Positions 9,780 through 37,100 of a stretch of 64,000 bases of DNA are shown one piece after another; positions within the stretch are counted from its first letter, which is position 1; each line of letters begins with the position of its first letter. The notes beneath the pieces were generated by a model that worked only from the letters and a program-made list of their open reading frames with translations, made no database searches and was not told where the DNA came from. The translations under genes and the position numbers were made by a program. The DNA is taken from the NCBI GenBank assembly GCA_973895155.1, contig OZ316893.1, forward strand, positions 11,796,359 to 11,860,358. Reading direction: 5' to 3'. Source of the stretch: Marsupella aquatica (taxonomy: Eukaryota > Plantae > Marchantiophyta).

Positions 9780-10150
9780 GGTTTTTGCATCAAACCCCTA
9801 ATACACAAGGGTAGCACTTGCTACATCATAACATGGTAATCATGAGTTTTCATGTACTACCAAGTTTTTTGTCCTTCACATGCTTTTTGAAGGCACCAAC
9901 ATAGTTTGAGGGCACTCTCAAAGAACTTAATCTTGCAAGAAAAATCTTTCACTCTAAATCTGAGCAAACATAAGGTGCTTGAACTTCAAGAGTAAATTAG
10001 CCTTGTTTGGATGAGGTTATAACCAAAGTTATGGCCTTAAGCCTTTTTCTTCAAGATCCAATATCACTCCCCCTGTGTCTTTCTCACCCGAATTTTTTTT
10101 AGTAAACTCTCACAGACATTATTCTCAATGTGCATCAAATCCACATTTGT
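9780..10150 (-). pseudogene. CACTA/En-Spm transposase (Tnp2/TnpD) remnant, downstream exon
   Basis: The minus strand encodes VDLMHIENNVCESLL and MKTHDYHVMM*QVLPLCIRGLM, matching the conserved CACTA motifs DxMHIEKN and KSHDCH. Confidence 0.8.
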
Positions 10151-12429
10151 TTTTGCTTGGATCAAATTCTTGCAAGTCAGATCACAACACAATATTCAGT
10201 ATATGCTTGGTTATCATAACCAGGAACTTAAAATACAAAGGTGGAATGAGCTGAAGACAGACCTCCCTCGGGGTAATTGGATTCTTGGCGGAGATTTTAA
10301 CATGAAGAAAATGAGAGAAGATTCGATGGGTATCTCCCCTATGACCAGGGGAGGAGAAGTGAAACTATGGAGATTCTTGAAGGTCAGGCTTGACTTGGCT
10401 GATGCATTTTTAATCAAAGAGGAAGCTTCTGGAGCTCGATTCATGTGGAGGCGATGCAAGAATAATGTGATGGTGCAGTCTAGACTCGACAGATTTTACA
10501 TCAGCAAAAAGGGGGAGTGGCTAGGAAAGCTGACGGAATTGATACATGATGGAGGCTCAGCCCTCTCGGATCATGATCCAGTGATTTTAACCCTTCAATT
10601 AGGTAATGCGGACGGTGGTTTCACACACTCACGGGTGGTGTGGTTAAAGCAAATCCAGCGATGGTTGGAAAAGAGGAAACTTGGAAGAGCTAGAAGCAGC
10701 ATGGCAACAAGGTAAAGGAGAGTGCTCCAAACCCTTGCTAGATTTTGATAAGGCTAATTATAGTCTGAGGAAGGATGTACAGGCAGAAGCAAAGTTCCCC
10801 TAAAGATCAAGAGCAGGATCGAGAGGAAAAAATGTTAATGCTTCGCAACCAACTACGTGCGCTTAAAATAATTATATTAGAGGAGGCAGTTTTTAGTGAA
10901 TACATCAATGTGGAGGACCATCTACACGCGGCTGAATTGGAAGAGGCGCACATTGGGAGGCGTCTGGCCAAAATAAAGTGGTTAGGAGAAGGTGAGGAGC
11001 CGACCAAAGTTTACTTTGCAACGGTGAAAGCAAAGCACTGCAGAGAAGCAATGAAATCTCTGATTATTGAGGGGGGGATCGAGATCACGGACCCTAGGCT
11101 GATTCTATAAGAAGTTGTTCAGTAGTGTAAGCAGCTATACGCCCCTGTTGCCCCTACTGTGGCTGAACGCGGGGAGATGGTGTGTGCTCACAAAACGTTG
11201 CTAGCACACACCAGACACTATCGACTACGGACTTAACAAAGATGGAAAATCTCCCAGAATGCAAAGAAATCAAGGAGACTCTGTGGATGCTATCACCAGA
11301 CAAGACACCAAGTCCGAACGGGATGACAGGTGAAGTATACAGAGCATGTTGGGACTTCATTCATGAGGACCTGACTGCTATGATACATGTATTATGGCTG
11401 ACGGGCGAATTGGATTAAGGATGGGATCATTAAATTTATCCCTAAGAAGCCAGATAAACGGTTCTTGAAGGATTGGCGTCCTCTCACAATGTTGAATACA
11501 GTCTACAAACTCATAGCTAAGATCCTAGCCGCTTGGCTGAAGGCTGTCTTACCTAAGATGATAAATGCGCAACAGGCAGTGTTTATCCCTAGGCGAAACA
11601 TTCTGGAAAATATATCTCTTGCTTGGTTAATGTGTGATTGGGTGAAGAATAGGAAAGTAGAATCATTATTTCTCAAACTAGACTTTGAGAAGGCATTTGA
11701 TAGGGTCAACCATGACTACATGTGGCCCGAGACAATGCATTTACTGGGGATCAGTAGTCATTTTATTAAGTTAGTTCAAGCGCTACTTACAGAGGCCAGC
11801 TCACGAGCACTTGTGAATGGTCTGCTATCAAAATCAATTGGGTTGAACCGTGGTGTCAGGCAAGGATGTCCATTGTCTCCACTACTCTTTGTAATATCAA
11901 CTCAACCTCTAATGGACCTGATGGAGCCAGAGCTGCTAGCAGGGAGGTTACTAGGAATCAAGATCTCCAAGGAATTAATAATCTGTTGTAGATTTTTTGT
12001 GGACGACTTAGGTATGTTTATCCCTACAATAGAGAGGAGCTTTCATATGGCCAAAACAGTTCTGACTTGCTACAAAACTACCACAGGAGCCAATTGAACC
12101 TGAAAAAATTGGTGGTGATCCCACTAGCAATTTTGTCTATCCCACGCTGGCTGACAAATACAGGCTGTATAGCTAGCAAAAAAGGAGAGATGCAGAAATA
12201 TCTAGGTGCACCTCTGGGGCTGGATCTGAGAACAGATCAACATCGCAGGTCTATTTTGGACAAGATAGACGCAAGTCTCTCATCTTGGGCTAACAAATTG
12301 TTGTCATTTTTTGGAAGGGTTCTACTGGTTCGCCACATACTCTAGGCAATTCCAATTTATCACTCAATGTTTCTAAAAGCCTTAGAGGGGTTGGCGAAGA
12401 AACTGATTGCACTATGCAGGGATTTCCTA

Positions 12430-12760
12430 TGTCACACCATTCTAGGTAGTGTTAGAGTGTATCGTACTATCTAGATCCGTATGTTTGGTATGTGTGCTAT
12501 ATGACCCGATAAGGTTCCGTTAGGTTTGTGTGAGAGGGTACTTCTCACTTGTGAGGCATTGAAAGATAATCTTTCAATGTTGAGCCTTGGAGAGAGAGGA
12601 GCTTGAGTGTGGCTATGGTGGCTGTGAGCTCCGCTTGTGTAACGTGGATTCCTTGAGTAGTGCAAGGTGCGTTGGCTTGACATACGTGTGTGATTGGATC
12701 GGTGCGGGATCGATGGGGTATTGTTGACCAGGATTGTTGTGCCAATTGTTGAGGAGATTA
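12430..12760 (+). repeat. Terminal repeat A1 (331 bp)
   Basis: Same length as A2 (21435-21765), 12 mismatches by manual alignment. Confidence 0.95.
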
Positions 12761-12771
12761 CATTGAAAGAT
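12760..12771 (+). promoter_or_regulatory. Putative self-priming primer-binding site
   Basis: ACATTGAAAGAT, immediately after A1, is the exact reverse complement of ATCTTTCAATGT (12569-12580) inside A. No TGG-type tRNA PBS at this position. Confidence 0.7.
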
Positions 12772-14023
12772 CAGATGTGAACTTTGCTATGCGGACTGTG
12801 CAAACAAAAGTTTGTATGTGTTGATTGAGTTGGCGACGGTTTGGGGAAATCATTGTGTGGATCCGTGGTAGCTCGGATCGTATTGAATAGATCGTTGGCA
12901 TCTTGGTTGGTTGCTGGTAACGGATCTGAAGTGGGAGATCCAAGTTCTGAAGTTCTGCTGTTGATGGTTTTTGGACAGAGTTCTCAAGCAGATCGGTGGT
13001 GCCCTCCGATCATTGTGAAGCCTTTGATAAGCTGATTGGGTGATTATTGTGAGCTCTTTGATAAGGATTTGTGCGTGTAGTGGGCTGCTCTGTAGATCTG
13101 AATCTGCATATCAATTGGTCGATGTTTGTTCCATTTTTCGGGAAGAAAGAAAAGAGCTTTCGACAATTTTTGGGTTCCTGCTGGTCGACAACTTTTCATG
13201 AAGGAAATCAGCAGTTTTTGGGAGCTTTTCGTGAAAGAAGTAGTCATTTTTGGGGTCAGGTGTGAGGCACGCGAGGTCACCTATCCCGAAAGTGCTCCCA
13301 ACCACAAGCGCGAAGTCATCCATCGTGAGCGCAGGTAGGCGCGAGGTCGAGGTCACCCATCCCGGGGCTATTATGGGCCGTGAGCGCGAGGGGAGGCACG
13401 AGGGCTATTCCAAGTCGCGAGCGCAAGGCGAAGCGCAAGGTCACCCATCTTGGGGCTATTCTCAGCCGCAAGCGCTTAACTGGCAAGTTCTCATCCCACC
13501 TTATGTACACACAAGTTTTCACAACTTGTTGTTTAGATTCAAGTGCCAGAGGGCTTTATACACTTTCCGGTTTGCTTAGAGCCTTGTTTCGGGCCAAATT
13601 AGAGGTTCTTTAGAGAGGTTTTTGATAGTTTTGAGTTCATCTAAATACACAGATTGAACCAATTCTGCATGGTTTCTCATCTATAACATTGGGACATCAT
13701 GAAGCCTATTATGAAGGCCTTTCATTGAATATTATGAAGATTTGTTTGATCAATGTGTGATCACTCTTGGTGTGGAGAGTTAGTGTTTGACTATTCTTGT
13801 TGATTGGATCCTCTCCACACTTGTTTCCTGTTTATGCGCCATGTTGGTTTGGTATGGGCGCTTGATTCCATAGGAGTGATCCGGGTTTGCAAACGGACAT
13901 TCTAGTGTGCTGTGTATTTCTCTCCTAGTGATGTTGGAGTGATGCCCAACACACCATGGTGAGTGCTTGTGGTGCTGACAGGGACAGATTGCCCTTAGGG
14001 TTAGCACATAGATTAGATTAGGG

Positions 14024-15260
14024 TTGGTCACCACGGATTCTTCTGGTGCTGCTGGGTTACCTGATGGACGACGGACCGGTTTCACTCGGAGTGGGGCACA
14101 ATTTCGGCCAGCGGCATTGGTAGCAGTCAACAATGCAGCTTTAGATAGTGATTCCGATGAGGACTCAGTCACCAGTTCTCCTCATCATCAGGTGGTTGCA
14201 CCTTTGTTGTGGGATATGGACGAGATGTACGGGGCTACAAAGGGCCCACGACGATACTCTGGTGCAGTTGGCACAATTGATCTGGATGACTTCATCCAGG
14301 AGTTTGATACGTGGTGCGATATGCAGACACTGCATAACGCCACATTATTTACCCCTTTCATGGCATGGAAAGGATTATTTCAGCATTTGGAGGGGCCACC
14401 CATGGATGACTACCATGAGTTTGGGAAGGCTCATTTAGTTGAGATTGAGGCATGGAGGCAACATTGATCGCCTAATTATGTGTCCATCACCTATGGCACT
14501 AGTGCGGCTGCCCAACCCATTGCCACAGCTGCTGCTTCTTCTAGCAGCACTAGCCAGAGTGGCACACCATCCACCAGCAACACTCAAGCAGCATCCACCG
14601 CTACTCCTGCCGGTGTGATTGTGACAGGAACTGGAGTTGCGCCAGCATTTAACCCTGTGGTGGAATTCTTTGAGGTACTGAAGCAGAACTATCAGGGTGT
14701 GAGAACTGATAAGTTGAAGGGTCTCCAGGAGTTTCAGCGCAAGACTGGAGAGAGTCTACGCGAGGCATACACTCGTATGCGCAGATTGATCACCGTCACC
14801 AAGGGAGTGACAGAGGCTCAGGCAGTCCAGTTTTGGTATGCAATTCTGGGCAGAGAATTGTGACGCAGAGTGAGAGATGTCACCCTGCTTAGGGATGCAG
14901 ATCCCACATTGGCAATTGTTTTTACCCTTTCTAAGCATATTGAGCTCAATATGGTGAATGAGAAGGTGGTGACTTCTGGATTTTCCAAGGAAGCACCAAA
15001 GGCTGCATCTATATCCACACCACAGCCTACTGCACGGAAGAGCCAGAGGGAGAAGCCTACTGCACGAGAGTCTACCAGCCAGAGACTTGTGCCCTCTTAT
15101 GTTGGACAGCAGTCAGGATGTTGGACTTGTGGTGGGGATCATGCACAGAGATATTGCCCAGATCATAGAGGATCAGGGGGAGCATCAGCGCCTAATCAGC
15201 GATAGTGTGATCACTGTGGAGCTCCTGGACACACCAAGGATAGGTGTTTCTCACTCCACC
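14024..15260 (+). pseudogene. Gag region of the retroelement polyprotein, with two zinc knuckles
   Basis: DLDDFIQEFDTWC and FQRKTGESLREAYTRMRRL (retrotransposon gag-like). Knuckles CWTCGGDHAQRYC and CDHCGAPGHTKDRC. In-frame stops; true start not resolved. Confidence 0.85.
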
Positions 15261-16099
15261 CTGAGTTACGGAGAGGAGGATCACGTACACATGATCAGGG
15301 AAGAGGAGGAGGAGGTAGAGGTGGTGGACATGGTCGTGGCATGCCACATGCAGGGAGACAGGGAGGTGACGTTGCCCTTGTTGTAACCATAGATCCAAAG
15401 GATGCTAAAATTGCTCAATTGGAGCAACAACTAGCTGCCATGGCTAGTTCCCAGGTGAGACCTAATTCTGGTGATGGGGCATCTACATCCTATGGACCTT
15501 CCACATCCCATGGTCCTTCCACATCTTATGGAGCTGATGGAGACCTTGCCACCATGGGATTCATGTGTGGCACTGCACATATTGATGCATCAGCAGCGTT
15601 GACACGTGGGGCAGCCAAAGCTCTTGAGCCCCGAGGAGCAGTAGTGGAGTTAAATCCACAGAGGGGGGATGCACATCGGCAGACAAAGCTTCCTCAATCT
15701 TTTACATTGTCAGAGATAGTTCAGACTCCCTCTATGAACCTGGTTCGGACAAACCCTTATGTGGGTAAGTTGGCAGAATCAGGTAGTGATGCAGTAGGGA
15801 TGACAGGTACCCTGCTGGGGGCGGCTACTGCCATGGTACACACCCCATTATTTTCAGCGACAGACATGCTGAACTTGGGAGTTGGTCCTGTAGAAGTGTT
15901 CAGATTGGCAGCTACACTCTATGAGGACACTCCAGTGGTTGCTTCCCATGTAGAAGCAGCTTGCAGTGTTGAAGCAGTGAAGATCATGCCACCTACTGCT
16001 ACTAGTGAGACATGGCATGCAGCAGCAGCAAGGTTGGTGGATTTACCAGCACGCCCTCCATTTGAGAGGACTAGGTTTAATCCTAGAATTGTGTCATTG

Positions 16100-16500
16100 G
16101 ATAATCAAAGTGGTATCTTCCGATTAGTTGGGCCTTCTAGGGCAGTATACCAGCCAGAGAGAGTGTTATTGGATACTGGTGCTCAGCCCTTGATGTTGGG
16201 TAAGTCTGCCATATGTGGATTGGGATTGCGTCCAGAGGATTTGGAGGATTGTCCCTTTCCCATTCAGACTTCATTGGGGGGACCTACACCTACATAGCAC
16301 ATTACCAGGAGACCTCTTGATTTAAGGATTCAGGAAGGTCATACCACAGATAGCTCACAAATACAGGCGCGAGCTATTCTGACTAAGGCAGAGTCATATG
16401 ATGTGTTGGTGGGATGTACAGTGCTCTACCCCATGGGATTTATTCTTGATTTTTGGGAGGAATCAGTGTCATACAGACCTGATTGGCAGTCAAGAGATGC
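16100..16500 (+). pseudogene. Aspartic protease domain
   Basis: VLLDTGAQPLMLG (DTG at ~16172) and downstream YDVLVG, in the same frame as gag. Confidence 0.85.
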
Positions 16501-16879
16501 TCGATTGAGCAAATTTCCAGTGAGATTTAGTGGACCTGTGGGAGGCCCTAAATCCACACCATTGTCTTTGGCAACATTCAGTGGTCTAATTGCTGGACCT
16601 GATGATTTGATTGAGGGTAATGCGCATTCAGCAGATGTTCCACCCTTGGAGGAGTCTCATGAGGAGCACATCATGTGAGGATTACCTGTTGGCAGTGTTG
16701 TGCCACCAGTGTGGGGCACTGCACAGGCCTTGCCACAGGCAACAGCACGATTGGTACATGATGCATGGCGTCATGCTTGTACACCATAGTCAGGACCAGA
16801 GCAGTCTCTTGCAGATGGACCTGTGACTCTTTCACCATTGGATACCACTCCTATTGCTTGGCAATATCCACTGGAGGGT

Positions 16880-17830
16880 ATTTGTTTGTTGGATCTTTTT
16901 GGTGGGATTAGCACTAGATTGGCTGCTGTTCTTCAGACAAGAATTCTTGTGCGTCGTTATTTGTATGTGGAGACAGATGAGACAGCACGGAGGGTCTCAT
17001 TGTGACATGTGGCTATGTTGGTGGATAGATATCCACAATTGCTGCCAGTGAATGCTGTTCGTGGTTATCAGCACTAGTTACCTGCTGATATTTCATTGCT
17101 GGGGGCGGATCATCTACATCGTGTTGGCCCCATTGATTTGGTGATTGCTGGTTGGCCATGTTAGGGCCAATCTAGAGCTGGCATTGGGCATGGACTTCAT
17201 GATCCACGCTCTGCACTATTTTGGGAGATGTTACGGGTGCTACATCATCTCCAGCTACATCAAATACAGTCTCCAACATACATTTTGGAGAATGTGCCAT
17301 TGTTAGGTGATGATCGTAGTCGGATTGTTGCTAGTGTTCACCAGGTGAGGTCTTGGATTGGACCTGTTGTGTTATTGGATGCTGCACGTGTGGGTTCTCG
17401 TGCACATCGTCCACACTTGTGGTGGACCAATTTGATCCCATATGAGGTGCTGAAGCGCGCATCTGACAGCATTCCACGCTCACCAGCCTTAGTGGTGGAT
17501 GATATTTTGGATCCAGGGCGTCGTGCACAGGGTGTGACCCAACCTGATAGACCTCCATTGGTAGTGGTCAATGCAGTTGGGCGCCCACGTTGTGCATTAC
17601 CCATTCTTGTAAGCCACTCTGCTTCATATGCATTCAGAGAAGGTGGCCCTGGACTTGTGTGGGACACAGCTCTCCAACAGTTAGTGGAGTCTACTGCTGA
17701 TGAGAGAGAGCGTGCTATGGGATTTTTGACTGGCACCACTGCAGTTGCCTCTGTGTCAGAGGGTTTGCGGCGCCAGGTTCTTGGTCAAGCAATGGATCTG
17801 AATTGTTTGACTTGGATTATCAGCTTGGGA
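16880..17830 (+). pseudogene. DNA (cytosine-5) methyltransferase domain, DNMT3-like, inside the polyprotein
   Basis: Motif I LDLFGGI, II YVETD, IV DLVIAGWPC*GQSRAG (catalytic Cys 17159-17161), VI YILENV, VIII DAARVGSRAHRPHLWWTN, IX ERERAMGF, X RRQVLGQAMDL. Canonical order, same frame as gag, PR and RT; three premature stops. Confidence 0.92.
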
Positions 17831-18043
17831 GTAGCTGAACAGTTGCGGATGCACTCTGCTAGAATTACTGATTGTCCCTTGGTGAGCTTGCGGTCCACTG
17901 AGACAGTACTGACCACAGTTGGGGGCGAGCAGACCTATGGACCTATGGCTGGACAGATTGTTGAGTAGGAAGGGACTGCTCAATCTACTACTAAATAGCA
18001 AACATCAACTATCTCTTCTACCCTACAAAGAGATATTAGGGAT

Positions 18044-19593
18044 TTGGTGGAGAGTTGGGAACCACAGCTTGGCCCTAAGTTGACAGGGAAGGAGAGACGT
18101 CGCATGCATCGATTCCTAAAGAGTTATTGGAATTGTTTTGCATTTAGCATGAAGGATTTGGGGACATTAAAGGGTCCTGGTATTCAGATTGAATTGGCTA
18201 GTGATGCGCCAATCTTTCATAGGCCATACCATTACAGTGACATGGAGAGAGCTCTGATTCAAAGTAGAACTCAAGATTTGTTGGAGGCTGGATTGGTGGA
18301 GATTTCATATGGGAAGTATGCATCTGCCATAGTGATGTCAGCCAAGAAGGATGTGCATGGCAATTACACAGATAGGCGCATGTATGGTGATTATAGACCC
18401 ATTAATCGCCAGACAAAATCTGATAGATATGCCATGCCCACACCTGAGGAGATCTTTGATGCTGTGGGGCATGCAAAGGTTTTTAGTTCATTGGATCTAA
18501 GGGCAGGGTACCATCAGCTTCCAATTAGGCATGCTGACAGGTCCAAGACAACATTCTGGGGGATTGATTCTTATAGCAAAGATCGTTTGTATCAATGGTT
18601 ATTCTTACCATTTGGATTGAAGAATGCACCAGCTGAGTTCCAGAGAGTCATGGATCGAATCCTTGCAGGTTTGGATTTTGTCAGATGTTATATTGATGAT
18701 ATTTTGGTTTATTCTTCTACTGTGGAAGAACATCAGCAGCACTTGCAGATTGTGTTGGAGAGATTGAGAGCACATGGGTTGAAGCTCCATCCTAGCAAGT
18801 GTAAGTTCTTCCAAGACCAGATTGAGTATTTGGGCCACACTATATACCCAGGGGGATTGGGTGTACAGCAAACTAAAGTGGAGGCCATTACAGAGATTCC
18901 TTGTCCTACTGATGTGAGTAGAGTTCGTGCATTCTTGGGATTGGCGAGCTACTACAGGAGGTATGTTAAAAGATTTAGCGAGCTTGTTAAACCTTTGACC
19001 ATACTCACTAAGTTGGATCAGAAATGGATTTGGGCTGATGACCAGGAGCATGCCTTTCAGGAGTTGAAGCAAAGGTTGGCATCATCCCCTATTTTGAGAA
19101 GACCCATTTCAGGCAGACCATTTCAGCCACACACTGATTGGAGTGGAGTAGGACTTGGAGCAGTGCTGACTCAGAAGGATGATGAGGGGAATGAGTTTGT
19201 TGTGGCTTATGCCAATAGATCAACAATTCAGCAGAGGCTAAGTATAGCTCTTATGAGGGAGAATGTTTGGCAGCAGTGTGGGTTGTTGCACATTTTCGTT
19301 GCTACTTGTTTGGTAACCCCTTCACCTTGATCACTGATCATCAGCCTCTTAAGTGGTTAATGGAGTCTGACAAGCTTATAGGGAAGCTTGCACGATGGGC
19401 ATTGTTGTTACAGGAGTATGATTTCCAGGTGGTACATAGGCCTGGGAAAGTGAACTTGGATGCAGATGGATTAAGCCGCAATCCATGTACTAGTCAGCAG
19501 GATGAGACTGGAGCCAGATGGCATGATGAGTCAGATAAGGAGATGGTGCCAGGATGGCATGCATCTGCCTTTCTTTGTTGGGTGCCAGCATAA
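18044..19593 (+). pseudogene. Ty3/gypsy reverse transcriptase and RNase H
   Basis: DYRPIN, LDLRAGYHQ, LPFGLKNAP, YIDD; RNase H TDWS, EGECLA, TDHQPL. One frameshift near 19220. Confidence 0.95.
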
Positions 19594-19602
19594 AGTGGAT
19601 TT

Positions 19603-20945
19603 GTGGACTCTACCTCATTGGATGGAGTGGATGAGGAGTCTTCAGATGTGGATGTTGGTGAGGTAACTTCTGGACAACAAGATATTCAAAATGATGTGAG
19701 AGTGTTGGAATATCTGCGTAGTGGTTCTATTGTTGGCAGTGTTGATGCCAACGAACGTGACAGGGTTCTACAAAGAGCCAAGAGGTTTCGATGGGAGAGA
19801 AACCATCTTTTGAGAGTACTGCATGATGGCAGGGTGTTGGTGGTACCAAAACCATCACAACGAGTCCATTTGGTGCGACATGCACACGAGGAGTTGGGGC
19901 ACCTTGGTGTGAAGCGCACTTATAGCTTGTTGCAGACACAGTATTGGTGGCGTGGTATGCACACTCATGTCCAGCAGTTGATAGCTAAGTGTGTGGTAGG
20001 TGATAGAGTGAGAGCATCATTTAATGCTCCCACTCCCTAGTTGCACCCGTTGCCGATCATGGGTTTGGGATATCGTTGGAGTTTGGATTTTGCTGGTCCA
20101 TTACCTCTTACCCAACGTCATAATCAGTATATTTTGGTCATGGTGGAGCACTTCTCCAAGTGGATTGAGCTAGTGGCATTGCCAGATAAAGCCAGTGGAG
20201 GAGTTGCTGCTACATTTTTGGATCGTGTACTTAGTCATTTTGGAGCACCAGCTGAGGTATTGACTGATCAGGGAACTGAGTTCCGTGGAGAGTTTGAGAA
20301 TTTGTGTGAGCAAGCTCTGATTGATCATTGTACTACCTCTCATGATCATCCTGAGGCAGATGGATTAGCTGAGAGAGTTGTGCAAACTATGAAGAGAGGA
20401 TTGCGTAAGTATGGCTTGCAGGTTGGTCATTTGGGAGATTGGGATCTCCAGCTACCTTGGTTAGCTATGGGCTACCGTTTCAGTCGGCAAACATCACTTG
20501 CATCTTTCCACCTTACTTTTTGCTCTATGGTAGAGAGCCAGATTTGCCAGCAGCTATTCGTCGTGATGTTGCACCAATTGTGAACTTGGATGATCCTGAT
20601 GTTTGGGCCAAGGTGTGTTCAGAGAGAGCACAGGTATTTCAGAGAGTGATATCCATGGCTTTTGACAACCTTGCCATTGCCCAACATCATGATACTTTGA
20701 GGTATGCCACTATTCATGGAGGAGGTTACCGTGCAAGCATTCGACGATTTCATCTTGGTGATTATGTTTATTTGCAGCAGACAGCACCCACGACACTTGA
20801 TGTGACCGCAAACCGGACAATCTTACGTGTGCATGAAGTGTTGCCTTCTGGTGTCTTGATGTTGGAGGGACGCGATGGTATGGTTTGGAAGGATTATGTG
20901 CGCAACTGTGCACCATGTCACCTCCCAACATTGATGGTACAATAG
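19603..20945 (+). pseudogene. DDE integrase (HHCC zinc finger, rve core and C-terminal region)
   Basis: HEELGHLG...WWRGM...CVVG (last Cys lost); WSLDFAGP, LTDQGTEF, DGLAER. Frameshifts near 20510 and 20930. Confidence 0.93.
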
Positions 20946-20980
20946 ATCCAAGCTTGGCACATGTTCGTGCTGGCTTGAAA

Positions 20981-21121
20981 TGTATGTTGTGTGGATCTGC
21001 TCAGGGAGCAACTACTATGTTGATTTGTGATAAGTGTTCTAGAGGATGGCACATGTCATGTTTGACACCACCATTGCAGGTGATTCCTAGTGGATCATGG
21101 TTGTGTCCTCAGTGTCGGTGA
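20981..21121 (+). pseudogene. C-terminal PHD finger of the integrase
   Basis: CMLC...MLICDKCSRGWHMSCLTPPLQVIPSGSWLCPQC is a C4HC3 PHD pattern, followed by the stop. Confidence 0.9.
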
Positions 21122-21285
21122 AGCCAACTAGTTATCATTTGTGTTCTCTTGGCAGATATGGATTGCAGGTAGGTGATCGATGGGGCTCACTTGCATCCGG
21201 CCTCTTGATCTTCACACCTAAAAAGGTGTATATCAACCTTGTAGAACTCATGGCTAGCTAGAGTTAGGGGACCTTACTTCCAGCT

Positions 21286-21295
21286 AGGGGGGCGA
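21286..21295 (+). promoter_or_regulatory. Polypurine tract
   Basis: AGGGGGGCGA immediately before repeat B1. Confidence 0.75.
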
Positions 21296-21432
21296 TTGTG
21301 GGTTTTGGACATATGTGGACATGAGTTCCACTTGTATTCCATTCTCTTGTGTTTGTGATGTGGCAGTGTGACTATGTCTGGATGTATATGACAAGCGATG
21401 TATGTTATGTAGTGATGTGTATGCACACGACA
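21296..21432 (+). repeat. Repeat B1 (137 bp)
   Basis: Matches B2 (21766-21902), 11 mismatches by eye; ends ...CACGACA. Confidence 0.95.
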
Positions 21433-21434
21433 AC

Positions 21435-21765
21435 TATCACACCATTCTAGGTACTGGTAGAGTGTATCATACTATCTAGATCCGTATATTTGGTATGTGT
21501 GCTATATGACCCGATAAGGTTCCGTTAGGTTTGTGTGAGAGGGTACTTCTCACTTGTGAGGCATTGAAAGGTCATCTTTCAATGTTGAGCCTTGGAGAGA
21601 GAGGAGCTTGAGTGTGGCTATGGTGGCTGTGAGCTCCGCTTGTGTAACGTGGATTCCTTGAGTAGTGCAAGGTGCGTTGGCTTGACATACGTGTGTGATC
21701 GGATCGGTGCGGGATCAATGGGGTATTGTTGACCGGGATCGTTGTGCCGATTGTTGAGGAGATTA
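21435..21765 (+). repeat. Repeat A2 (331 bp)
   Basis: Copy of 12430-12760, separated from B1 by the dinucleotide AC. Confidence 0.95.
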
Positions 21766-21902
21766 TTGTGGGTTTTGGACATGTGTGGACATGAGTTCCA
21801 CTTGTATTCCATTCTCTTGTGTTTGTGATGTGGCAGTGTGACTATGTTTTGATATATGTGACAAGCGATGTATGTTGTGTAGCAATGTGTATGCGCATGA
21901 TA
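21766..21902 (+). repeat. Terminal repeat B2 (137 bp)
   Basis: Copy of B1, abutting A2 and followed by the TSD CCTA. Confidence 0.95.
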
Positions 21903-22747
21903 CCTATGGGGGTACAATTCGGAGGGAGGAAAACATGTTCCACTGGTTCCTTGGGCTAGGTTGGCTAGACCCAGAGTTGAAGGTGGATTGGGGCTAAAAG
22001 TCATTCAGACGCGCTTTTGTCTCAATGGTTTACTGGGGCTTTAGACTCCCCCAATACTGAATGGGCAAGGTTGTTTGCTGAAAATCTGAGGCTGGTTAGC
22101 TGGGTGAACTTTAAGGTGATCCAAAGGAATCAATATTTTTTCCAAGACAAAATGTTATTATGTTGTCCTTGTTCATTCAATGGATTAGCTTACCTTGGTG
22201 GGCTGTGGAAAGCTTGGATCCAACTCTGGGCACACTTGATCTTTTTGACTACCACTGTTATGCCCGGTAGATGGATAGTAAATGATGCTCTCCGTTGCTT
22301 AAAGGGACTACAGGCCTGGCCTAACGAGGACTATGCAGTGGTTACAAGACTATGTGGTAGGATGGATATCCGTTGCATTCAGGACTTATGGTCTGGGGAC
22401 TCTCATGAATAGCGCAACATGGAAGCCAAATTGGAGCAGACAGAGGGTTCACCCGGAGAGAGAAGAGCTGCTGCAGAGATTTTTTGAGGAAGATCAGGGA
22501 AACTAAAAGTTGCAACAAGAATGTTGCCCCCGGATTGCGATGTTGGTGTTGGGCCGACTGTCCTGATGGCCTAAAAGCATTTAGGATCAACAATCGGCGG
22601 GCTTATATCCTTCTACACCCCTCTATAGGAGATCATGGTAAACTGAATTATACATGGAGCAGTCACAAAACTGACGTGGAATGGAACTCTCTATGGACAG
22701 GACTGTGATGTTCAGACTTATCATCTCGGGCTAAGACATTTATCTGG

Positions 22748-23258
22748 GGGTAGCGAGGATCATCAATTATCAACCACCCCCTAGATAAACATTTTTTATC
22801 AGCCACCCCCCAGATAAGCGAATTTTTTTGAATCTCAGTTGAGCAGCTAAGATGACGACTTTGCACTTCCACGCATCTCACCTAGGCAGCTGAGATTGAC
22901 TCAATCTCAGCTGACCTCGCCGAGATTGGCGTGCGGACAAAAAAAATGAGAAAAAAATTATTTTCTTGAAAAATTCAAAACAAAAAAGAATTTGAGAAAA
23001 AAATCGACAAAATTTGGTGTCCGTACCGTATGGACATCTGGCCATCTCGGCTGGCCCCGCCGAGAAGTGACGTCCGTACGGTACGGATACCCATAGTGAA
23101 AAAAATTTCAAAAATTTTTTTTTTTTATTCATCAAATTTTGAGAAAAAAAAATTAAAAAAAAAATTCGCATTTTTTTCGGCTCTGCATCTTGGCGGTCTC
23201 TCTGAGATGATGTGACAACTGATGAAAACGACTCATAACTGATGATGTAATTTTACTC
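22748..23258 (+). mobile_element. ~510-bp Mutator-like MITE inserted in the LINE
   Basis: 9-bp TSD TTTATCTGG/TTTATCTAG. Removing it restores LINE TFIWRVLISGLFT. Imperfect TIRs GGGTAGCGAGGATCATCAATTAT / ATAACTGATGATGTAATTTTACTC. Confidence 0.8.
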
Positions 23259-24089
23259 TTTATCTAGAGGGTCCTGATATCAGGGCTGTTCACAAGTGTG
23301 AGAGCAGTTCGCATCGGCAAGGGAGAGGGTCACTGCAAGTTGTGCACCGGGGTTATTGAAACCATCCCCCATCTTTTTGCTTAATGTGCATGTCAAGAGA
23401 TACTGGGCTATGGGCTCCGGTTGCTTTCAAGGCACCTTTGTGGACTATTCTGAAAAGTTATTGGAGATGGAGGACTTGATTGTGAGAAAAGACACTTACA
23501 AGGTGGCAAAATTATTCATTTTAATACCCAGATGTTTCAACCAAATGGTTACAGGAGATTTGATCTGAGATTTATCCTCTCAAAAGCTGTAGACTATGTG
23601 ACAGCGATTGATCTGTGTTTGTCTCCGGGGAGATAACACTAGATTGCTTCGAGTAAAAGAGTTCATTAATATATCAGGAAAGAGTTGCCTGGGTGCATAG
23701 ACATAATGTGTGGATTACCTCTGGTTGATACCAGATTTGATGTATAGGTCTTCTGTTAGATGGGTATTTTGGATGAAGCACCCGCTTTATGATTTGGGAT
23801 ACCTGTTAAAGGTCACTTGGGGAGTTTAGATAGTGATTAGCGATCCGTCTGGGTGTTGCTTGGTGCTGGTTTTTTTTTTAATAGGCTGTTGTTATGGTTT
23901 TGTGTTGGGCTTGATTATTTCCCCCGACCATGGGGTTTTCGTGGCCCATATGTTATTAAAGGAAAAAAAAATTCAAGGAAAATATAAATGTCATATAGTG
24001 GTTATCATAACCATGAATTAAAAATACAAATATATAGTTTTTCCGGAAAATTTAAGCTGCTATAACAAACTCAAAAATGCAATCTCAAA

Positions 24090-25640
24090 CTTACCCTCCA
24101 ATAGTCTAGCTCCTTGTTCAAAGCGTTTAGTCGCTTTACACCATACTTTTTGCTTGGATCATTTGGACCATCTTCTCTACCTCCTTCTTGATCATACACC
24201 ACCTTCAAAGCTGCCCAAGTTGAAATCTCCTCTTTGGTAACTCTTGGTGGGGGACCACACAACTTTTTGTTCTTATCAAAGTGTGTTATTTGAGATGCTC
24301 TATGTCTATAAGGGTGATCTAGTAGAAGAAACCTATGATGTCCTTGGAACTTAAATGCTTGCAAAGTTTTTGAATATACACTAGTCACATTGAGATCACA
24401 GGTAGAACAACCCAAATATGAATAAAGTTACATCATCAGTTATCAGTCATTCTCATCATTTTACCTGATATCAGTCCCACATCATCTCAGAGAGACCGCC
24501 GAGTTGCGGCGAGAAAAAAAATGGAAATTTAAAGAAAAAATTCCAAAATTTAAGAGGATTTTTTTTCTGGGAATTTTTTTTACTATGCGCTGTTTGTACC
24601 ATACGAACGTCTATCTAGACGAGACTAGCTGAGATTGGCTGCCCCATCTCAGAGAGGTACAAGCTGAGATGGACTATGTTCGTACAGTACGGATGCGTAC
24701 TTTCGGGATTAATTTTTTTCAAATTATTTTTTTCAGAAAATTTGGGATTTTTTTTTGAATTTTTTTTTTCCGTATACCTATCTTGGCAAGGTAAGCCAAG
24801 ATTGGGCCAATTTCAGCTGCCCAACTGAAATACACAAAGGTGCAGAGGCTTATCTTGGCTACTCAACTAAGATTCAAAGAAATTAAAGGCGAAAAACTGA
24901 TAATTGATGATCCTCGCTACCCCCCCAAGTATCCTTTTGTAGCCTGGCCTGAGATCATGTCATGTGCAGGATAATCTGCTATTGTTAACATCAAGATGAC
25001 CTTAAGTAAAAATGGGCTAGATCTACCAACTCTTTGTAATACACCATAGGTAATCACCCCTTCCTCCCATAGCTTCTTTAGCTCCTCTATTAGTGGAGCC
25101 AAATACACATGATCTATATTCTTAGAAAGAGCTGAGTCTGGCCTAGGAATTAACAAAGTTAAACAACACAAAGAACCTCTTTTTTGACATGCAAGGAGGG
25201 AGGTTATAATTCAAGAGGATTACAGGCCAACAAGGCAATATATTTTTCTTATCTCCAAATGGATTCACCCCATCCAAAGAAAATCCAAACCTAACATTTT
25301 TTGTCTCAGCTACAAACTCTGGATACTTCTCATCTATAAGTTCCCATTGTTTGGAATCTCCAGCATGCCTTTGCAATCCATCAGGGCTTGTCAGTTGTCC
25401 AAGTCATCATTTCTAAGATGACATTGCATCTATACATCCATTATAACCTTGGAATCAAAGGGAAGTGACAAGTACCTTTACAGGTTGTTTGGATCTCCCA
25501 ACATTTTTATATCTATGCTTGCCGCAGGAAGGGCATGTCAAACAATCAACATACTCTCCTCTGAAAAGAACATGACCATCAAGGCAATCATGGATTGAAT
25601 TGTAACTCAAACCTAAACTAGATATCAACCTCCTAGCCTG
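24090..25640 (-). pseudogene. CACTA/En-Spm transposase (Transposase_21) remnant, upstream part
   Basis: NVRFGFSLDGVNPFG, WPVILLNYNLPP, YLAPLIEELKKLWEEGV, TIADYPA, GHHRFL..DHPYR, ELDYW followed by a GTAAGT donor. Frameshifted and split by a MITE. Confidence 0.9.
24420..24923 (-). mobile_element. Second copy of the ~500-bp Mutator-like MITE, inverted, inserted in the CACTA transposase
   Basis: Ends are reverse complements of those at 22748-23258. 9-bp TSD CCCAAATAT/CCCAAGTAT. Removal restores GQATKGYLGCSTC. Confidence 0.82.
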
Positions 25641-27099: not shown

Positions 27100-27830
27100 T
27101 CTTGTAGTCGTGCGATCCTCTATTGTACTGAGAGGACTGCGTGACATTGTATCGGCATTGTGGTGGATCACTCCTGATCAATGAATGATATCAAAAGTGT
27201 ACTCCTGCAAGATCAATACCCGCCTAGCTAGTTTACCGATCAATTTGTTGTTGGTCATCAACCATTTAAGTGATTGATGATCTGTGAACAACATAATTTT
27301 TTTACCATACATATATGATTGGTAGAAAATATACCACAGCCCATATCACAGCAAGTAGCTCTCCTTCATAAGATGAGTTGTTACTATGTGAAGCATAGGC
27401 ATTGAAATTCTTAACATGTGTACGATAATAGTTGCATAGATCTAAAAAGATGCATAGTTTATTGACATATGTAGGTGTTTTTATATTGTTGATGGTCAGA
27501 ACCTTGACCTCATCTGGCATGAGTCCATCAAAAATCACTCGGTGTTCCAGATAGATCACACTGTTCACCCCGAATTCACATTTCTTGGGGTAACATTTGA
27601 AATTAGTTTTTGTGAGTCTTTTGAACAGGTCTTTCAAATCATCCATGTGTTTGTCAAATGAAGGGTTGTGTACTATGACATTATCAATATAACATTCGAT
27701 GTGTGCTGCAATTTTCTTCACTATATCCATAACTTTTTGAAAAAAGATGGCTGCATTCTCATAACTTGTCACTGCCATGAAATGCAGTCTTCTTTCTGTC
27801 CTTGTGACAGAGCCAATGGCCCCAAAGAAT
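27100..27830 (-). pseudogene. Gypsy RT/RNase H remnant, internally deleted
   Basis: CYIDNVIVH, KCYPKKCEFG, SSYEGELLAVIWAV, DHQSLKWLMTNNKLIGKLAR. Confidence 0.85.
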
Positions 27831-30800
27831 GCTTTTAAAGGGTAGTGGTAACACACACATGTAAATAAATAGATTTGTGTCAAGTTTTTTTTGCTTTTGT
27901 TCTATTACAACCTTGCCGAAGATAATTTATGCGCAATATAGATGAGGTGAGTGTTGATATTTTTTCATGTCCTCTTGATTTTAATTATCGGCCAAGCCTT
28001 GGATAAAGAAGGGGTTGGTCACTGGCCGATGCAGGACAAGGCATGTGTCCTAATGCCTTTCCATGTAGGAGTCGGATGATTTCCTATCTTTTTAATTTTT
28101 TTAAGTGACCCTAGTATTAGCATAATGGGAGCCGGGTCAAAAGGCGTGAGTGGCCAAACGCCACTTTTGGGACCGGTCAGCAAGAGTTAGGGAAGGAAAA
28201 ATAAAAGAGACCCAACCAAGGAACGGCCCAACCAGCAACGAGCGGCTCGAGCCAATAACAAGGCGGCCTAGATAAAAAGCCAGCCAAGGAGGAGTAGAGT
28301 CGACCTGGGAGTGCCAAGGCTCGAAGAGTGAACCGATGTCCGCGTGATCGTATTTTATGGTAAAAGCATGTTGGCTCTTATGAGTCGACCTTGTATGTCC
28401 ATAAATTCTATAGTAAAACCAAAATGATAACTCTTGTAAGAAGGGTAGTGGGTATTAAGAAAAGTTCAGGTGAAACTAATATATTATTAAATTTTACTTT
28501 ATCATATTTGTTGATCAACACCTCTCAAAAACTAATTTTTTTACGACATATCATCATAATATTTCAAGAGAAAATAAAATAGGAATGTCATCTGACTCCT
28601 ATTTAGATCCATGACTTCAATAGAGGACAAAGATAATGCATTCTCACTCCTCTCAGTAAGACACTACTGGGTATACTATTGCCTTATTAGAACTCATAAC
28701 AACAATTGTAATTATTCCAAACAAATTCAATTGTAATATTCCAAACAGATTACATAAATTAATAACTTATCCCATTCCAATGAATGATGATTCTATAAAG
28801 TTTGTATACTTATTCTGTAATTTGATTGTGAAAATAGTCATTCTTGCGAAGAGATCACAGAGGCCAAAGGTGAAAGTAAAAGGGCTTTGAAAGAATCAAA
28901 TGCTGTTACTTTGTCCTGCTCGATTAGCGAATAAAAAAAAACTTGTCTCTGCCCTGCTTCGGCCAGCATCGTCATCAGCCACGGGTAAGCCCGACGGTCC
29001 AAGCCAAACCTTCTCTTCCACCGGGGCGGGGAGAGCTGAAGCTTAGAAAGGCCCTTGTTCTTTGCCTTACATAGCTAAAGGCCCTCTACCCCATTCATAA
29101 ATCCAAACGTACAAATGGTTCATCGGTTTCACCGAATGCTCGAAATTGGATGCTCTTGGGCATCTTCACGCAATTTTCAGGTGCTTTAGATACCGTTTAA
29201 TATTTATGTGTCCTTTCGGTGAAGTAGCTATTAGAGATTTGAAAAACAATTGGTTATCCATAAATTATATCTTTCTTTTTTCGCAAAACCGGTAGATAGT
29301 TATATATTTGTTTTTCATTCATATATATATTTTTCAAAAGAAGTGTGCATTACAAAGAACCCTCTCAGCCGGCGAAGTGCACGGAAATCTACAAGCCATT
29401 TATGGTCCCGGCTCCTCGTCCGGACCTAGTTCTAAGCTATCTCTCGACACACCTCGAGATTACTCCCGACGCATATCCAGGTTGGGTAGGACAGAGGGTT
29501 ATGTCCTGTGGTGCCATTCAAATCCGAACAATTTTAGGGGGTGCGATCGAGCCTTACGATTGACGAGGTTTATATACATTCGCTTACATTACCTCTATCA
29601 GCTAACCCTACCCCCAAGGCTTCAAGTGCCAATGGTTAATTGCTGGTTGACAAGGACCGAAAGAGTCTCCGATTCGTCGGTACAGAACCTCATCTTAAAT
29701 ACAAGAGAACTGACAGTTTAATCGTTTCGTTTTGACCCCTTTGCTATGATTTTTTGGTTCATGCAAGAGCCCATCCCTATTTAACCATGCGAGCATAACC
29801 AAGTTGAACAAATCACACACTTTTTAATGGCATTATAAAAAAAATTCTACGATCGGTTGAAACCGGAAAAATCATATCAACGAGTGAGCGCGCTTGTTTG
29901 ATGCCCTCCTGCATGCTCCATTAGCAATCCCTCGTTCCCCGAGCTAGAAGTTCTATGGCTCGTCTTGTGAGTCTACCAGAGGTATCTCACTCAGTCTGGC
30001 TGGGAAATGGCCCAGCTATTACGTCGCTAGGGTTGACTCCAGGATTGCGGACTCCGATACGCGCCTGGATGACATGATAAAATTTGAAAAAACTATTGCC
30101 AGATTATAATTTACTTAGTATCGACTATAATATGCGCATACATATATTAACAGGTGTGGATGAAATCACTCCAATTTGTTCGGTAGTCGGTATATTCTCA
30201 TCGGCCGGCTGGTGGAAAGAGAAACTTGGGAACAAAAAAAATAACCGAAGCGATAGCTATCGCCCATCGGCTCTTTGACCTGACTTTTTTAGGAGCTTAA
30301 CGACTTTTTTAGGAGCTTAACGCTAATCCGAAATCACCTATGCGATTTATGAGCATAGCTTTAATAACCGCTTTATTCGCTTGAATGCACGTAAACCAAG
30401 AATTTATCAATAAATATGATGCGAGTCCAACCCCCATCAATCATGCAAATGTGAACCAATTTTTTTATCAATTGTTTTTGTTTACCATTTAAGCCCCGGA
30501 TATAGCCCAAATTGTTTGAACAATTGTATGTGCTTGCCTCGTCCATGATAAGGATAACTTTCTTCCCTCTCTTCCATCGCCAACCCTCTTGGGTCTGGTA
30601 TCTTTGTTTCGTGCGTACTACTCGGCGTCCGATAGCAATGTGTGTATTCTTAACGATAGGCCGATTAATGATGCCCGATATAAAGCATCATCACATTATC
30701 CTCCTCGAAGGGAAAGCCCGAGGGGGGCATGTGCTCCTTTGATAGTCTGCAAAAAAGAGGGGATGGGGTCTATAGACAATGGTAGGATCGGGGGTAGGTG

Positions 30801-34144: not shown

Positions 34145-37100
34145 ATGGGGCTCACCTGCAAAATTTGTTTCGAGCGAGCCTCGGATCAAGAGAACGGCTC
34201 GCAAGCTCGGATTACGCCCTGCGGTCATGTCTTCTGCGCTCCGTGTGCTGCGATTTGGTTTCGGAATGATGCGCCCTGCCCGGTGTGCCGCCACTCCGTA
34301 GCCGCACCTTCCGCTCTCATACCTCTCTATGACCACGATTCCGGCATACAATCACCATCGTATGGTCTCGACACTATACTTGATTGTGGGAACGCCGATT
34401 TGTTGCAAGATTGGTATGTATGTATGTAAAGACAGAAGGAGAGGGAGGGAGGGAGGGAGGGAGTCAGGCAGAGAACCTGTTAGGTCTGGGGTGTGGGGAC
34501 GGGCACGAGCAAACGAAGCAGAGACAACAGGGACATATTTGGGCTTTAGAGGGAAAGAGACAGCACAAGTCATTTTCAAACCGCACTTGCATCCAATAAG
34601 TCCATTGAACTGAGAATTAGACAGAAGATGCTTCTTGTCGCCGAATTTCCATTATCGAATGGAATCAGTACGCTCTTCCCAAGTTCTTCCTTCTATGGGG
34701 GTTTGCTTAGCTACTAAATTATTTGTAATCTTGCACAGTTCTTATCTGTACAGACATCTAGTCCCTGGGCAAATGTAGACAACTCGGATAAGCACCACTC
34801 CACTGCGAGGAAGCTTTTCACGATTCAGATTGGATCGGAAGGTTCCTGGAAAACTGTGGATGACAAAACGCTTTTAATTGATATATTATTTGTATCCTTA
34901 TCTGACCTATTAAACCCCTACAATTCTTGAGCTGGGATTGGCAATCCAGCAAACGGGCTCGTTGTACTAAACTTGACCCAATGCAAAACTTTTACATAAA
35001 ATTGTAGAATCCTGATGCTATGAACCATATACGGAAAGCTTATCTTCATGTCTCGTGAGTGAGGTTTGTTCTTGAGAGTTCCGTGATGCCCGTCACTGGA
35101 ATTATCGTTTACCTGTCCTTTTTGGACCTTTTTATTGTGCGTAATTGTTTATAGCGATCGAAGTTTCTGAATTCATCACGTGGTTTCGCTTGGCAGTTCG
35201 GAACTCTACTTTGGGCCTATAGAGAAGGAAGTGTGTTCAGAGGATTTGTTGGAAAAACTATCATCTTTTCGAAGGAAATCGTTTACTGTGGAAGTTATCT
35301 AAAGGATAAGGATGCCGGATCTGTCTAAAGGTCTTCTGTATTGGATTGTGCAGTGTTGGAGACCAATCTGAGGAGAGTGTCAACGGTGAGCCCTTGAATG
35401 GAAAGCAGAAATTTTCCCCAGAGAAAGGAAGCTCTGGAAACTGGGAATACAAGGACAAGTCCGAATCAAGAGAAGGGTTCAACAATGAAAGATCAGGGGT
35501 TACTAGTTGCTTGCCAAAGTGTGGAACCGAGGATGAGGATATACAGGTTAAATTCGTGTTAGGCAAATTGGCTGAGCGATGGCAACAGGTAGTGTTGGAG
35601 AGAGCAAAATTGAAAGTACAGGTTGCGAAGTTGGAGAAACTGAAAGGGGATCTCTCAACTCAAGTGCAATCTCTGACTGAGGAGAATATGATACTTAAGC
35701 AGGCCCTCAGCATGAGATGTAGACCAGTCGTTAGGAGTAGCGTTGTTGACGGCACGGCCGCCTGGGATGGTGAAAGTGAGATTAGCTTCCATGGAGATGG
35801 TATGTGTCAGGGATTTGACAGGGACTCGGAGGCAAACGGAAGTCTTCTGCAATCTTCGATCAACCATCCGGAGCTGTCTTTTAGCGGGACTGAGGCAGCC
35901 TTCAATAATGTAATAGTCTCGAGGCGCCCTCCGGTTAAAATAGAGGAGAGATTAGCAGCTGCCAAATGGGAACTTGGCCATACGTTTTCAATGCACTCTG
36001 GCCCAGTTCATGGAATTGCTGTTAGTCCTTCTGGGAATCTGGTAGCCACAGCATCCTGGGACCATTTATGTAGAGTATATGATGTCCATTTAGAGGAGGA
36101 AGTATCTGTGCTATCAGGTCACCTTCTCGGACTATATGCTGTTAAGTTTTCTCCAGCAAAACGTGATCTGGTGGGCACTGTAAGCTCCGATCATACATGC
36201 CGCTTATGGAATACGGACACTGGAGAATGTCTACATGTACTTGAAGGCCACACAGATGAGGTGATTGCTCAGTACTCTTTGTACTAATGCCTACCATCTC
36301 GCTTTGACTATAAATTATTTTAAGGTTCAGTGAATTAAGGGCATGAGATCTAGGAGATCTATTAATTAATGCATTACATATATTCCTCCAACTCGCGTCT
36401 ACTATTTCAGGAGGATCCTGTTGGCATCATGGAGTCCGTAATATCCTCTTTGCGTCTGCATACAGGTCAATGGATTGTCTTTTAAGCAGGGAACACATCT
36501 ATTAGCAACTGCATCGGATGATAAATCCAGCATAATATGGGATGCAGAGAAAGGTGTTGCCGTAACAACTTTAAAGGTACGACCTTCACCCGTTCGATGC
36601 GTCTTTATCGGGCTAGGTCAGGTTGTCATTGGTGCAATGCACAGAATCTGGCCCGATGTTACTACAAGGAAGATGATTTAGAGCTGTTCTAGTCGTGTCC
36701 GAAATGTGATCTTCATCAACATTTTAGGTTCTCTGCAGGCAAGAAGGGCGTACTAGCACATTAGGGAGACATCAAGGGAGGAGGTGACCTGTTTACTTCA
36801 CTGAGATTGAATGAAGTTATCTGCGTTGTCACCTCGTGCCTCCCAGCTCTCTAGATTGACTCGTCATCATACCCAATTGTCTTCCAGGGCCATCGGAACG
36901 GTGTGTATGGTGTTTGTTTTCAACCTGCTGGACACCTTGTAGCAACGGCCTCATTTGACTTCACTGCAAAATTGTGGGATCCACGTTCGGCAGAAGATAT
37001 TCAGACACTGCGAGGTCACCAAGAGGATGTCATCGGCGTGGACATTGATGACTCTGGCACCTTCCTTGCTACTGGAAGTGATGACAAAACTTGTCGTGTT

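Follow-up and report, generated by a model that had tools for sequence, protein, structure and literature searches.

Permuted repeats with an internal integrase-end joint in a decayed Gypsy-DNMT3 retroelement of the liverwort Marsupella aquatica: a proposed route of integration

The integrase ends of a Gypsy-type retroelement from the liverwort Marsupella aquatica are likely stored head-to-head, as CA and TG, inside its long terminal repeat (LTR), and its integration likely occurs by cutting this internal joint and not at the tips of the DNA. The element occupies positions 12430-21902 of a stretch of 64,000 nucleotides (assembly GCA_973895155.1, contig OZ316893.1, positions 11,796,359 to 11,860,358 of the forward strand), which in its full length is called the window here and to which all coordinates refer. 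Judged from its sequence it is filed as a decayed land-plant copy of the Gypsy-DNMT3 (KnitGypsy-Dnmt3-type) lineage, the monophyly of which has been partly tested. Both the repeat layout and the presence of a DNMT3 are already published for an alga (de Mendoza et al. 2018, PMC5890265), and in the text of that paper the layout is left unexplained.

Architecture of the Marsupella element

Two pairs of direct repeats build up the element. The A copies have 331 nt each with 12 differences (BLAST E 7e-155), and the B copies differ at 11/136 sites counted from TG to the end (BLAST E 8e-53; the length is 137 nt when the preceding T is included). This divergence of 4-8% is as expected of aged copies. 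Both borders of the element carry a CCTA duplication, and the reading frame of the host long interspersed nuclear element (LINE) resumes in frame once 12430-21902 is excised, matching a paralogous LINE at about 63000. A first-pass annotation of this DNA had described one unit A1-ORF-B1-A2-B2 (ORF, open reading frame) within a target-site duplication (TSD), which is borne out by these alignments and borders. It had also taken the LTR to be B+A, bounded by a polypurine tract (PPT) and a primer site, with the integrated ends lying inside it. This is supported: the PPT is found only before B1, the primer site only after A1, and the seam between A2 and B2 joins both boundaries, so that the reverse-transcribed LTR is most simply B+A (Table 1). 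The right terminus of this copy reads TA and not CA.

The domain order is Gag, protease (PR), DNMT3-like methyltransferase, reverse transcriptase (RT), RNase H (RH), integrase (IN) and PHD finger. Pfam matches were obtained for RT (4e-35), RNase H (6e-22), the zinc finger (1e-14) and core (3e-14) of the integrase and the PHD finger (1.2e-12); Gag (E 0.006) and aspartyl protease (0.03) match weakly, and DNA_methylase is found at 4.5e-9. No tyrosine recombinase family of Pfam was matched in any of the six frames at E<=0.01, and Pfam scans of the element gave no Chromo match; the domain that follows the integrase is the PHD finger. The earlier statement of a DDE integrase and a TSD without tyrosine recombinase thus holds. 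Of the polyprotein Gag-PR-DNMT-RT-RH-IN-PHD that had been proposed, the domains and their order stand, and the single open frame does not, because a family-conserved TAG-CAA lies between DNMT and RT and readthrough of this stop would be needed. The window copy itself is dead, with 12 premature stops (10 in ORF1, 2 in Pol) and three frameshifts near 19221, 20517 and 20930; uninterrupted relatives of ORF1 are P0059 and P0070.

The methyltransferase domain is intron-less and unrearranged and shows the motifs LFGG, GWPC, ENV, RAHR, ERAMGF and LGQAMD in this order; the role of a chromatin writer that the first-pass annotation had assigned to it is putative. Among PDB entries DNMT3A is the best match (8e-10), followed by 3C and 3B, with HaeIII (1e-3) and DRM2 (0.16) far weaker. 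Over 342 aa it is 35% identical to GAQ93235.1 of Klebsormidium nitens. Motif IV reads EC instead of PC in the L050 family (L050 10745-11695), and among 222 matched proteins 90 have EC and 127 PC.

In the integrase the second D and the E are 34 residues apart, one fewer than in Ty3 and foamy virus. The same spacing occurs in 54/54 proteins that matched the search pattern, a count that covers only these pattern-matching proteins among the integrase-bearing ones (25/45 and 29/64, together 54/109). The best matches of the PHD finger include PHF12, CHD4, PHF21A and the first PHD of KDM5A, and in 60/67 relatives G replaces W two places before the PHD histidine. These features presumably point to a reader of unmethylated H3K4.

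Table 1. Coordinates of the element, its parts and its insertion site in the window
Feature	Position	Strand	Remark
Decayed host LINE, element inserted in 3' region of its RT (flanks only)	10041..22412	+	RVT_1 4e-25; 67% to LINE at 61831-63277 on both sides
Left TSD, CCTA	12426..12429		host LINE continuous across site
Repeat A1, starting TGTCA; right part of B+A LTR, likely promoter-R-U5	12430..12760	+	
Predicted RNA 5' end and self-primer, complementary to primer site	12569..12579	+	12-nt exact complement, 0/300 shuffles
Primer-binding site immediately after A1; none after A2	12761..12771	+	
ORF1: Gag with two CCHC knuckles (~15120-15250), protease (~16088-16480), DNMT; 10 premature stops	14216..17995	+	
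DNMT3-like C5 cytosine methyltransferase domain; 3 stops within	16862..17830	+	Pfam 4.5e-9
Family-conserved TAG-CAA between DNMT and RT, predicted readthrough stop	17996..18001	+	
RT and RNase H, Ty3-like; frameshift near 19221	18065..19420	+	Ty3 RT 2e-58
DDE integrase: HHCC zinc finger, D-D-34-E core; stop at 20038, frameshifts near 20517 and 20930	19843..20930	+	
C-terminal PHD finger	20978..21118	+	Pfam 1.2e-12
PPT immediately 5' of B1; none before B2	21282..21295	+	
Repeat B1, TG...GACA; left part of B+A LTR	21297..21432	+	
Internal att-att joint: B end CA, 2-nt spacer, A start	21428..21439		2-nt spacer in 15/15 joints
Repeat A2	21435..21765	+	
A2/B2 seam: primer-site end meets PPT end, joint as in a 2-LTR circle	21760..21772		
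Repeat B2, right end of insertion	21767..21902	+	
Right TSD, CCTA	21903..21906		

Ends and joints across the family

The termini of relatives were obtained from a scan of metagenome contigs, covering the best 80 of 313 confirmed stretches, and are known from the type with DNMT before RT only. TGTCA opens each of the 24 distinct left ends. In the sequence before them, followed over up to 700 nt, neither B nor A was detected in a single case (0/24; local scores of 14-32 vs 181-272 for three controls), and an ordinary complete LTR at the left end was likewise found in 0/24. Among nine insertions with both ends, including that in the window, seven have an exact 4-bp TSD (CCTA, AAGG, CATA, GGTC, CCAA, CCAC and TACA), and a duplication of 3 or 5 bp fits in 0/9. 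Nineteen right ends could be classified, namely ten as B-A-B, two as B-A with a shortened B (L066, L075) and seven as B alone, with five left unclassified (L002 and L037, in which the end lies inside A2, the internally deleted L024 and L026, and L030). The layout A...BAB with distinct TSDs is present in L035, L038, L050, L054 and L066, which belong to two other families, and L016 is a copy of the form A...B with an exact TSD. Independent copies with this layout and 4-bp TSDs, which the first-pass annotation had proposed to look for, therefore exist.

The joint between B1 and A2 reads CA-NN-TG with a spacer of exactly two nucleotides wherever it was found, in members of five sequence families. 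The spacers are AC (6), GC (5), GT (3) and TC (1); with GC the joint is a perfect palindrome, i.e. two integrase ends placed head-to-head. Nine of the 15 spacers are AC or GT, as expected from deamination of methylated CAGCTG, and the TG is lost at 4/15 A2 starts vs kept at 24/24 A1 starts. The joint seems to decay fast once it is genomic, and host CHG methylation could be the cause.

The A2/B2 seam is the variable joint. B2 is shortened in 2/12 BAB-type ends (the two named above), and deletions across the seam, reaching from inside A to the B start, occur in single contigs of related sequencing runs. After the B end, varied flanks are found in 8-9 contigs in each of three out of four such runs. 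At the B ends of the L050 family short tandem copies of a terminal att-like unit occur in varying number (L054 15669-15684; B ends of L050, L055 and L066).

Primer site and conserved stop

The sequence following A1 is complementary to a stretch inside A. This match spans 12 nt in the present copy; in the L035 family it reaches up to 17 nt, in the L050 family 15 nt. A self-primer complement of 10-17 nt is located at the expected place in 11/22 left ends, each of three families having its own sequence, and by eye a fourth version was recognized in L030. The predicted 5' end pairs with the primer site in both the minimum-free-energy and the centroid fold of the window leader. Relatives have a TATA-like box about 25-30 nt upstream of the predicted RNA start, and no transfer RNA gene was found in the 64-kb window. 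Self-priming is described for Tf1/Sushi and Tcn1 elements in passages of PMC6317226. In the 5' leader (13274-13475) there are also three degenerate, G+C-rich repeats of about 38 nt, which may represent a packaging or dimer signal.

DNMT and RT lie in the same frame in the window, and a stop followed by CAA or CAG precedes RT by 20-27 codons. In a count from 60 rows, which left out 13 frameshifted rows and the too decayed L079, this stop stands at one position in 21/21 same-frame rows of the L035 family (15 TAG and 6 TAA, some rows being the same insertion twice) and in 4/4 L030-type rows, three of them fitting CARYYA. Database proteins of this ORF1 type terminate at the stop position, and GAQ93235.1 ends just after DNMT. 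UAG-CARYYA is a known readthrough signal of plant viruses according to the parts seen of PMC4132726, and we infer that Pol would be made by UAG readthrough.

Proposed integration route and its alternatives

We hold it rather probable that reverse transcription produces a complementary DNA (cDNA) of the form BA...BA, that its tips become joined and that the integrase opens the internal joint of the 5' LTR. Layout, 4-bp TSD, joint, PPT and primer-site positions as well as the conserved stop were read in the sequence, and from them we infer the following steps. The RNA would start near 12569 in A1 and end in A2. Gag-PR-DNMT would be abundant and Pol would arise via UAG readthrough; since Gag-PR-DNMT would be made in quantity, packaging of the methyltransferase would reach the level of Gag, and the cDNA would be its likely target. 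The RNA 5' end would prime itself at 12761 and the PPT would prime the plus strand, which would lead to BA-internal-BA. End-joining of the tips would create the A2/B2 seam; this could happen before integration, in a 2-LTR circle, or after it, by repair of a break. The integrase would then cut after each CA of the joint in the 5' LTR, leaving ends that resemble processed retroviral ends, and insertion of these ends with a 4-bp stagger would yield A...BAB. Copies of the form A...B might derive from 1-LTR circles or from B-B recombination, and the PHD finger would likely steer the integrase to H3K4-unmethylated chromatin. According to the abstracts of PMC1905944 and PMC4372172, the DDE integrase of human immunodeficiency virus 1 (HIV-1) can cut the palindrome at an LTR-LTR junction and 2-LTR circles can feed integration.

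Several observations weigh against this route. A 2-LTR circle has two identical joints and therefore insertions of the form A-B-A...B should be as frequent as A...BAB, but they were seen in 0/24 left ends, and even 0/12 would have p = 2e-4 under equal joint use. We conjecture that joint use is one-sided and that the 5' joint is captured first, perhaps preferred because it is the first to become stable double-stranded DNA; the asymmetry could otherwise be due either to collapse of ABA...B to A...B or to templating of the seam in the manner of PAT elements. Most copies share an identical or nearly identical seam, which is what templating would produce. The predicted cDNA tips are att-like in two families (B starts with TG after 2 nt, and A ends with CA in the L035 family), and together with L030 they speak against integration at the outer ends having been lost cleanly. 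In L030 the order is B-A-primer site, as in an ordinary 5' LTR, but it follows a PPT and looks like a collapsed assembly. B-only right ends make up 7/19, and two of the nine insertions lack an exact TSD, L024 matching in 3/4 positions and L049 not at all. In the remaining 11/22 left ends the self-primer is decayed, deleted or has its best match elsewhere, the fold of the window leader is no better than that of shuffled sequences (z 0.32), and no TATA-like box is evident at 25-30 nt upstream in this copy. In the L050 family there is no shared stop in 20 same-frame rows, 12 of which are fully open, so that DNMT and RT are continuous there. The DNMT of K. nitens gave no methylation in yeast, a result which its authors call inconclusive in the text of PMC5890265. 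Finally, all relatives with termini are known from short-read metagenome contigs and as sequence only.

Evenly balanced in our judgement is the wider proposal that the integrase ends of an ancient Gypsy lineage of green plants and algae were relocated from the cDNA tips to the middle of the LTR. Cutting of an encoded att-att joint would then be the obligate route, and each time the choice would fall on one of two identical joints. The DNMT3 fused to Gag may mark the cDNA, possibly at the joint, in the manner of a restriction-modification system, and may in this way select the joint for cutting or keep the integrase of the element off joints in the genome.

Rather unlikely is a templated route as in DIRS/PAT elements. 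Its RNA would extend from A1 across B1-A2 and reach into B2; repair of the cDNA ends and circle closure with a new B/A joint would be templated by the internal B1A2, and the DDE integrase would have replaced the recombinase as opener of the joint. Both the occurrence of A...BAB without ABA...B and the near-identical seam would follow from it, and the layout is that of PAT and Ngaro elements (as given in parts of PMC4157794). Against it stand the conserved PPT before B1 only and the covarying self-primer site after A1 only, since these positions predict ordinary LTR-type priming, by which RNA beyond A2 would be discarded. The seam deletions in L066, L075 and related runs and the Ty3-like RT also disagree with templating.

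We regard as improbable that the mobile unit is A-internal-B, i.e. a 1-LTR circle opened at the joint, with BAB formed later by a short A-B piece that inserted or recombined in tandem at the right end. The seven B-only right ends and L016 would fit such a unit, but there is no TSD at B1/A2, the 2-nt spacer is fixed, the seam corresponds precisely to the ends at primer site and PPT, and neither ABA...B nor longer arrays were seen. Moreover, a copy A...B has no R at its 3' side and would be unable to finish strand transfer. An ordinary paired-LTR gypsy element that was rearranged or misassembled at this locus, the case which the first-pass annotation had named as refuting its reading, is hardly credible: no read or contig from related sequencing runs spans the whole unit and L030 shows B-A-primer site in one contig, but the same layout with distinct TSDs recurs in five loci of two other families, none of the 24 left ends carries B, the A and B copies have diverged like aged ones and the layout is published for Klebsormidium (Fig. 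4c legend of PMC5890265).

Relatives and distribution

Homologues with a named source are found in Marchantia polymorpha (68%), Calypogeia fissa (67%), Sphagnum fallax, Closterium, Chlamydomonas eustigma, Scenedesmus and Klebsormidium nitens; 424 protein clusters were matched at E<=1e-30, part of which were examined. Relatives whose ORF1 proteins are full-length form an 18-member cluster in the annotation of M. polymorpha, and some of the Marchantia genes annotated as "DNA methyltransferase" seem to be ORF1 of these elements. DNMT is placed before RT in the window, Marchantia, Sphagnum and Closterium. A second domain order, with DNMT between RNase H and integrase, is seen in Scenedesmus and many other proteins including the chlorophyte-type P0239, P0040 and P0044; the two orders mean that DNMT has moved within the polyprotein.

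In FastTree phylogenies of RT and DNMT, which contained neither labelled gypsy clades nor host DNMT3 and from which four near-duplicate or partial proteins were omitted, the window element clusters with the protein of Marchantia and with the L002/L035 family (support 0.997 and 1.0). GAQ93235.1, presumably a copy of KnitGypsy, groups with these methyltransferases against five phage enzymes (support 1.0, in a tree without host DNMT3 and with weak deep nodes). In a viral collection only weak matches of phage-type methyltransferases were obtained (30 loci, E 7e-14 or weaker). A decayed gypsy RT fragment elsewhere in the window (27302-27901, minus strand) groups on a long branch with the L050 family, which belongs to the same lineage (support 0.96).

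Comparison with known systems

KnitGypsy-Dnmt3 of K. nitens is described with DIRS-type A-coding-B-A-B repeats, Gypsy domains and a DNMT3 (de Mendoza et al. 2018, Fig. 4c legend), and the window element resembles it in its Gypsy domain set, its intron-less DNMT3-related domain and its layout. The order of knuckle, protease and DNMT in GAQ93235.1 is also the same. The assignment as "undescribed" that had been given to the window element is thereby overturned. The two differ in that the text of the paper confines KnitGypsy-Dnmt3 to the K. nitens lineage, whereas here the element resides in a land plant and its DNMT and RT are parted by a stop. PHD, TSD, primer, readthrough and an integration model are not mentioned in that text.

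PAT, TOC, Ngaro and VIPER elements, including SymbioDIRS-Dnmt3, share the split direct repeats A1-B1-A2-B2, and some of them carry a methyltransferase (parts of PMC4157794 and PMC5890265). A tyrosine-recombinase retroelement is ruled out for the window by its DDE integrase, protease, PPT, TG..CA ends and 4-bp TSD and by the missing recombinase. The order PR-RT-RH-IN, the Ty3-type RT, the TG..CA-type ends and the 4-bp TSD, which falls in the 4-6 bp range of that group, are features of Ty3/Gypsy elements, of which two complete terminal LTRs are absent. With the self-priming Tf1/Sushi and Tcn1 chromoviruses, as far as they are covered in the passages of PMC6317226, it has in common a Ty3-type RT and a chromatin reader after the integrase, and the self-priming predicted for it would be like theirs; unlike them, and unlike Chlamyvir, it has a PHD finger and not a chromodomain, and it further differs from Tf1/Sushi and Tcn1 in having permuted and not paired LTRs, a DNMT and the DD34E spacing. 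The cleavage of HIV-1 2-LTR circle junctions is alike in that a DDE integrase cuts an att-att palindrome and frees integrable ends. In HIV, however, the joint is formed from the cDNA tips and serves a side route (PMC1905944 and PMC4372172), whereas here it is written into the LTR and apparently serves the main route.

Two further candidates were rejected. Troyka elements, to which the first-pass annotation had also pointed, have paired LTRs, CG..CG ends and a 3-bp TSD and occur in animals only according to the text seen of PMC12440569; only the order Gag-PR-RT-RH-IN is alike, and every terminal feature differs, the window element having TG..CA-type ends, no 3-bp duplication fitting in the nine insertions and the named relatives being green plants and algae. 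Ginger1 DNA transposons have a Gypsy-like integrase, TGTNR ends, a 4-bp TSD and in one family a PHD finger, but they possess no RT, have long inverted repeats and target CCGG or CCGT specifically (parts of PMC2836005), to which the window element does not correspond.

In the open-access literature we found no account of the CA-NN-TG joint or of the integration route, of a self-priming site and PPT exactly at the A/B seam in this lineage, of a conserved UAG-CAR stop between DNMT and RT, of a PHD finger with a DD34E integrase, or of relatives in liverworts, Sphagnum, Closterium and chlorophytes; the Fig. 4c image and the main supplement of PMC5890265 may already show PHD, TSD or domain order. 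The portions seen of 10.1101/363937 and PMC12344493 contain nothing on termini, and in those of 10.64898/2026.05.21.726589 "streptophytes (Gypsy-DNMT3)" are mentioned in passing.

It has long been asked whether integrases of the retroviral type can genuinely use circle junctions as substrates for integration, and in retroviruses such use has so far been seen only as a side route. The Gypsy-DNMT3 lineage appears to depend on the cutting of such junctions, and the full-length ORF1 relatives in the M. polymorpha annotation make a model plant available for its study. The range of retrotransposon-borne DNMT3 is widened from one alga to liverworts, Sphagnum, Closterium and chlorophytes and is linked to a PHD reader. 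Tools for LTR finding that are built on BA...BA will mis-bound these elements. With the encoded att joint, its putative one-sided opening, self-priming, readthrough and the PHD finger, a one-line figure legend becomes a testable model.

Other features of the window

To the right of the element (22746-24924) a foldback or MITE-like element is found with perfect outer inverted arms of 27 nt and several nested imperfect arms. A LINE on the plus strand (59123-63646), encoding a DUF4283 ORF1, endonuclease and RT in long frames with few stops, shares 67% identity with the host LINE of the element. Among the host exons, that of a histone acetyltransferase type B-like protein (50803-51720, minus strand) has its best named matches at 36-40% in Ginkgo, Selaginella and Adiantum; a land-plant host fits them, and the element's relatives make a bryophyte likely. 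Other host exons encode a WD40 protein (35310-37373, plus strand) and a KH-domain protein (40749-41552, plus strand).

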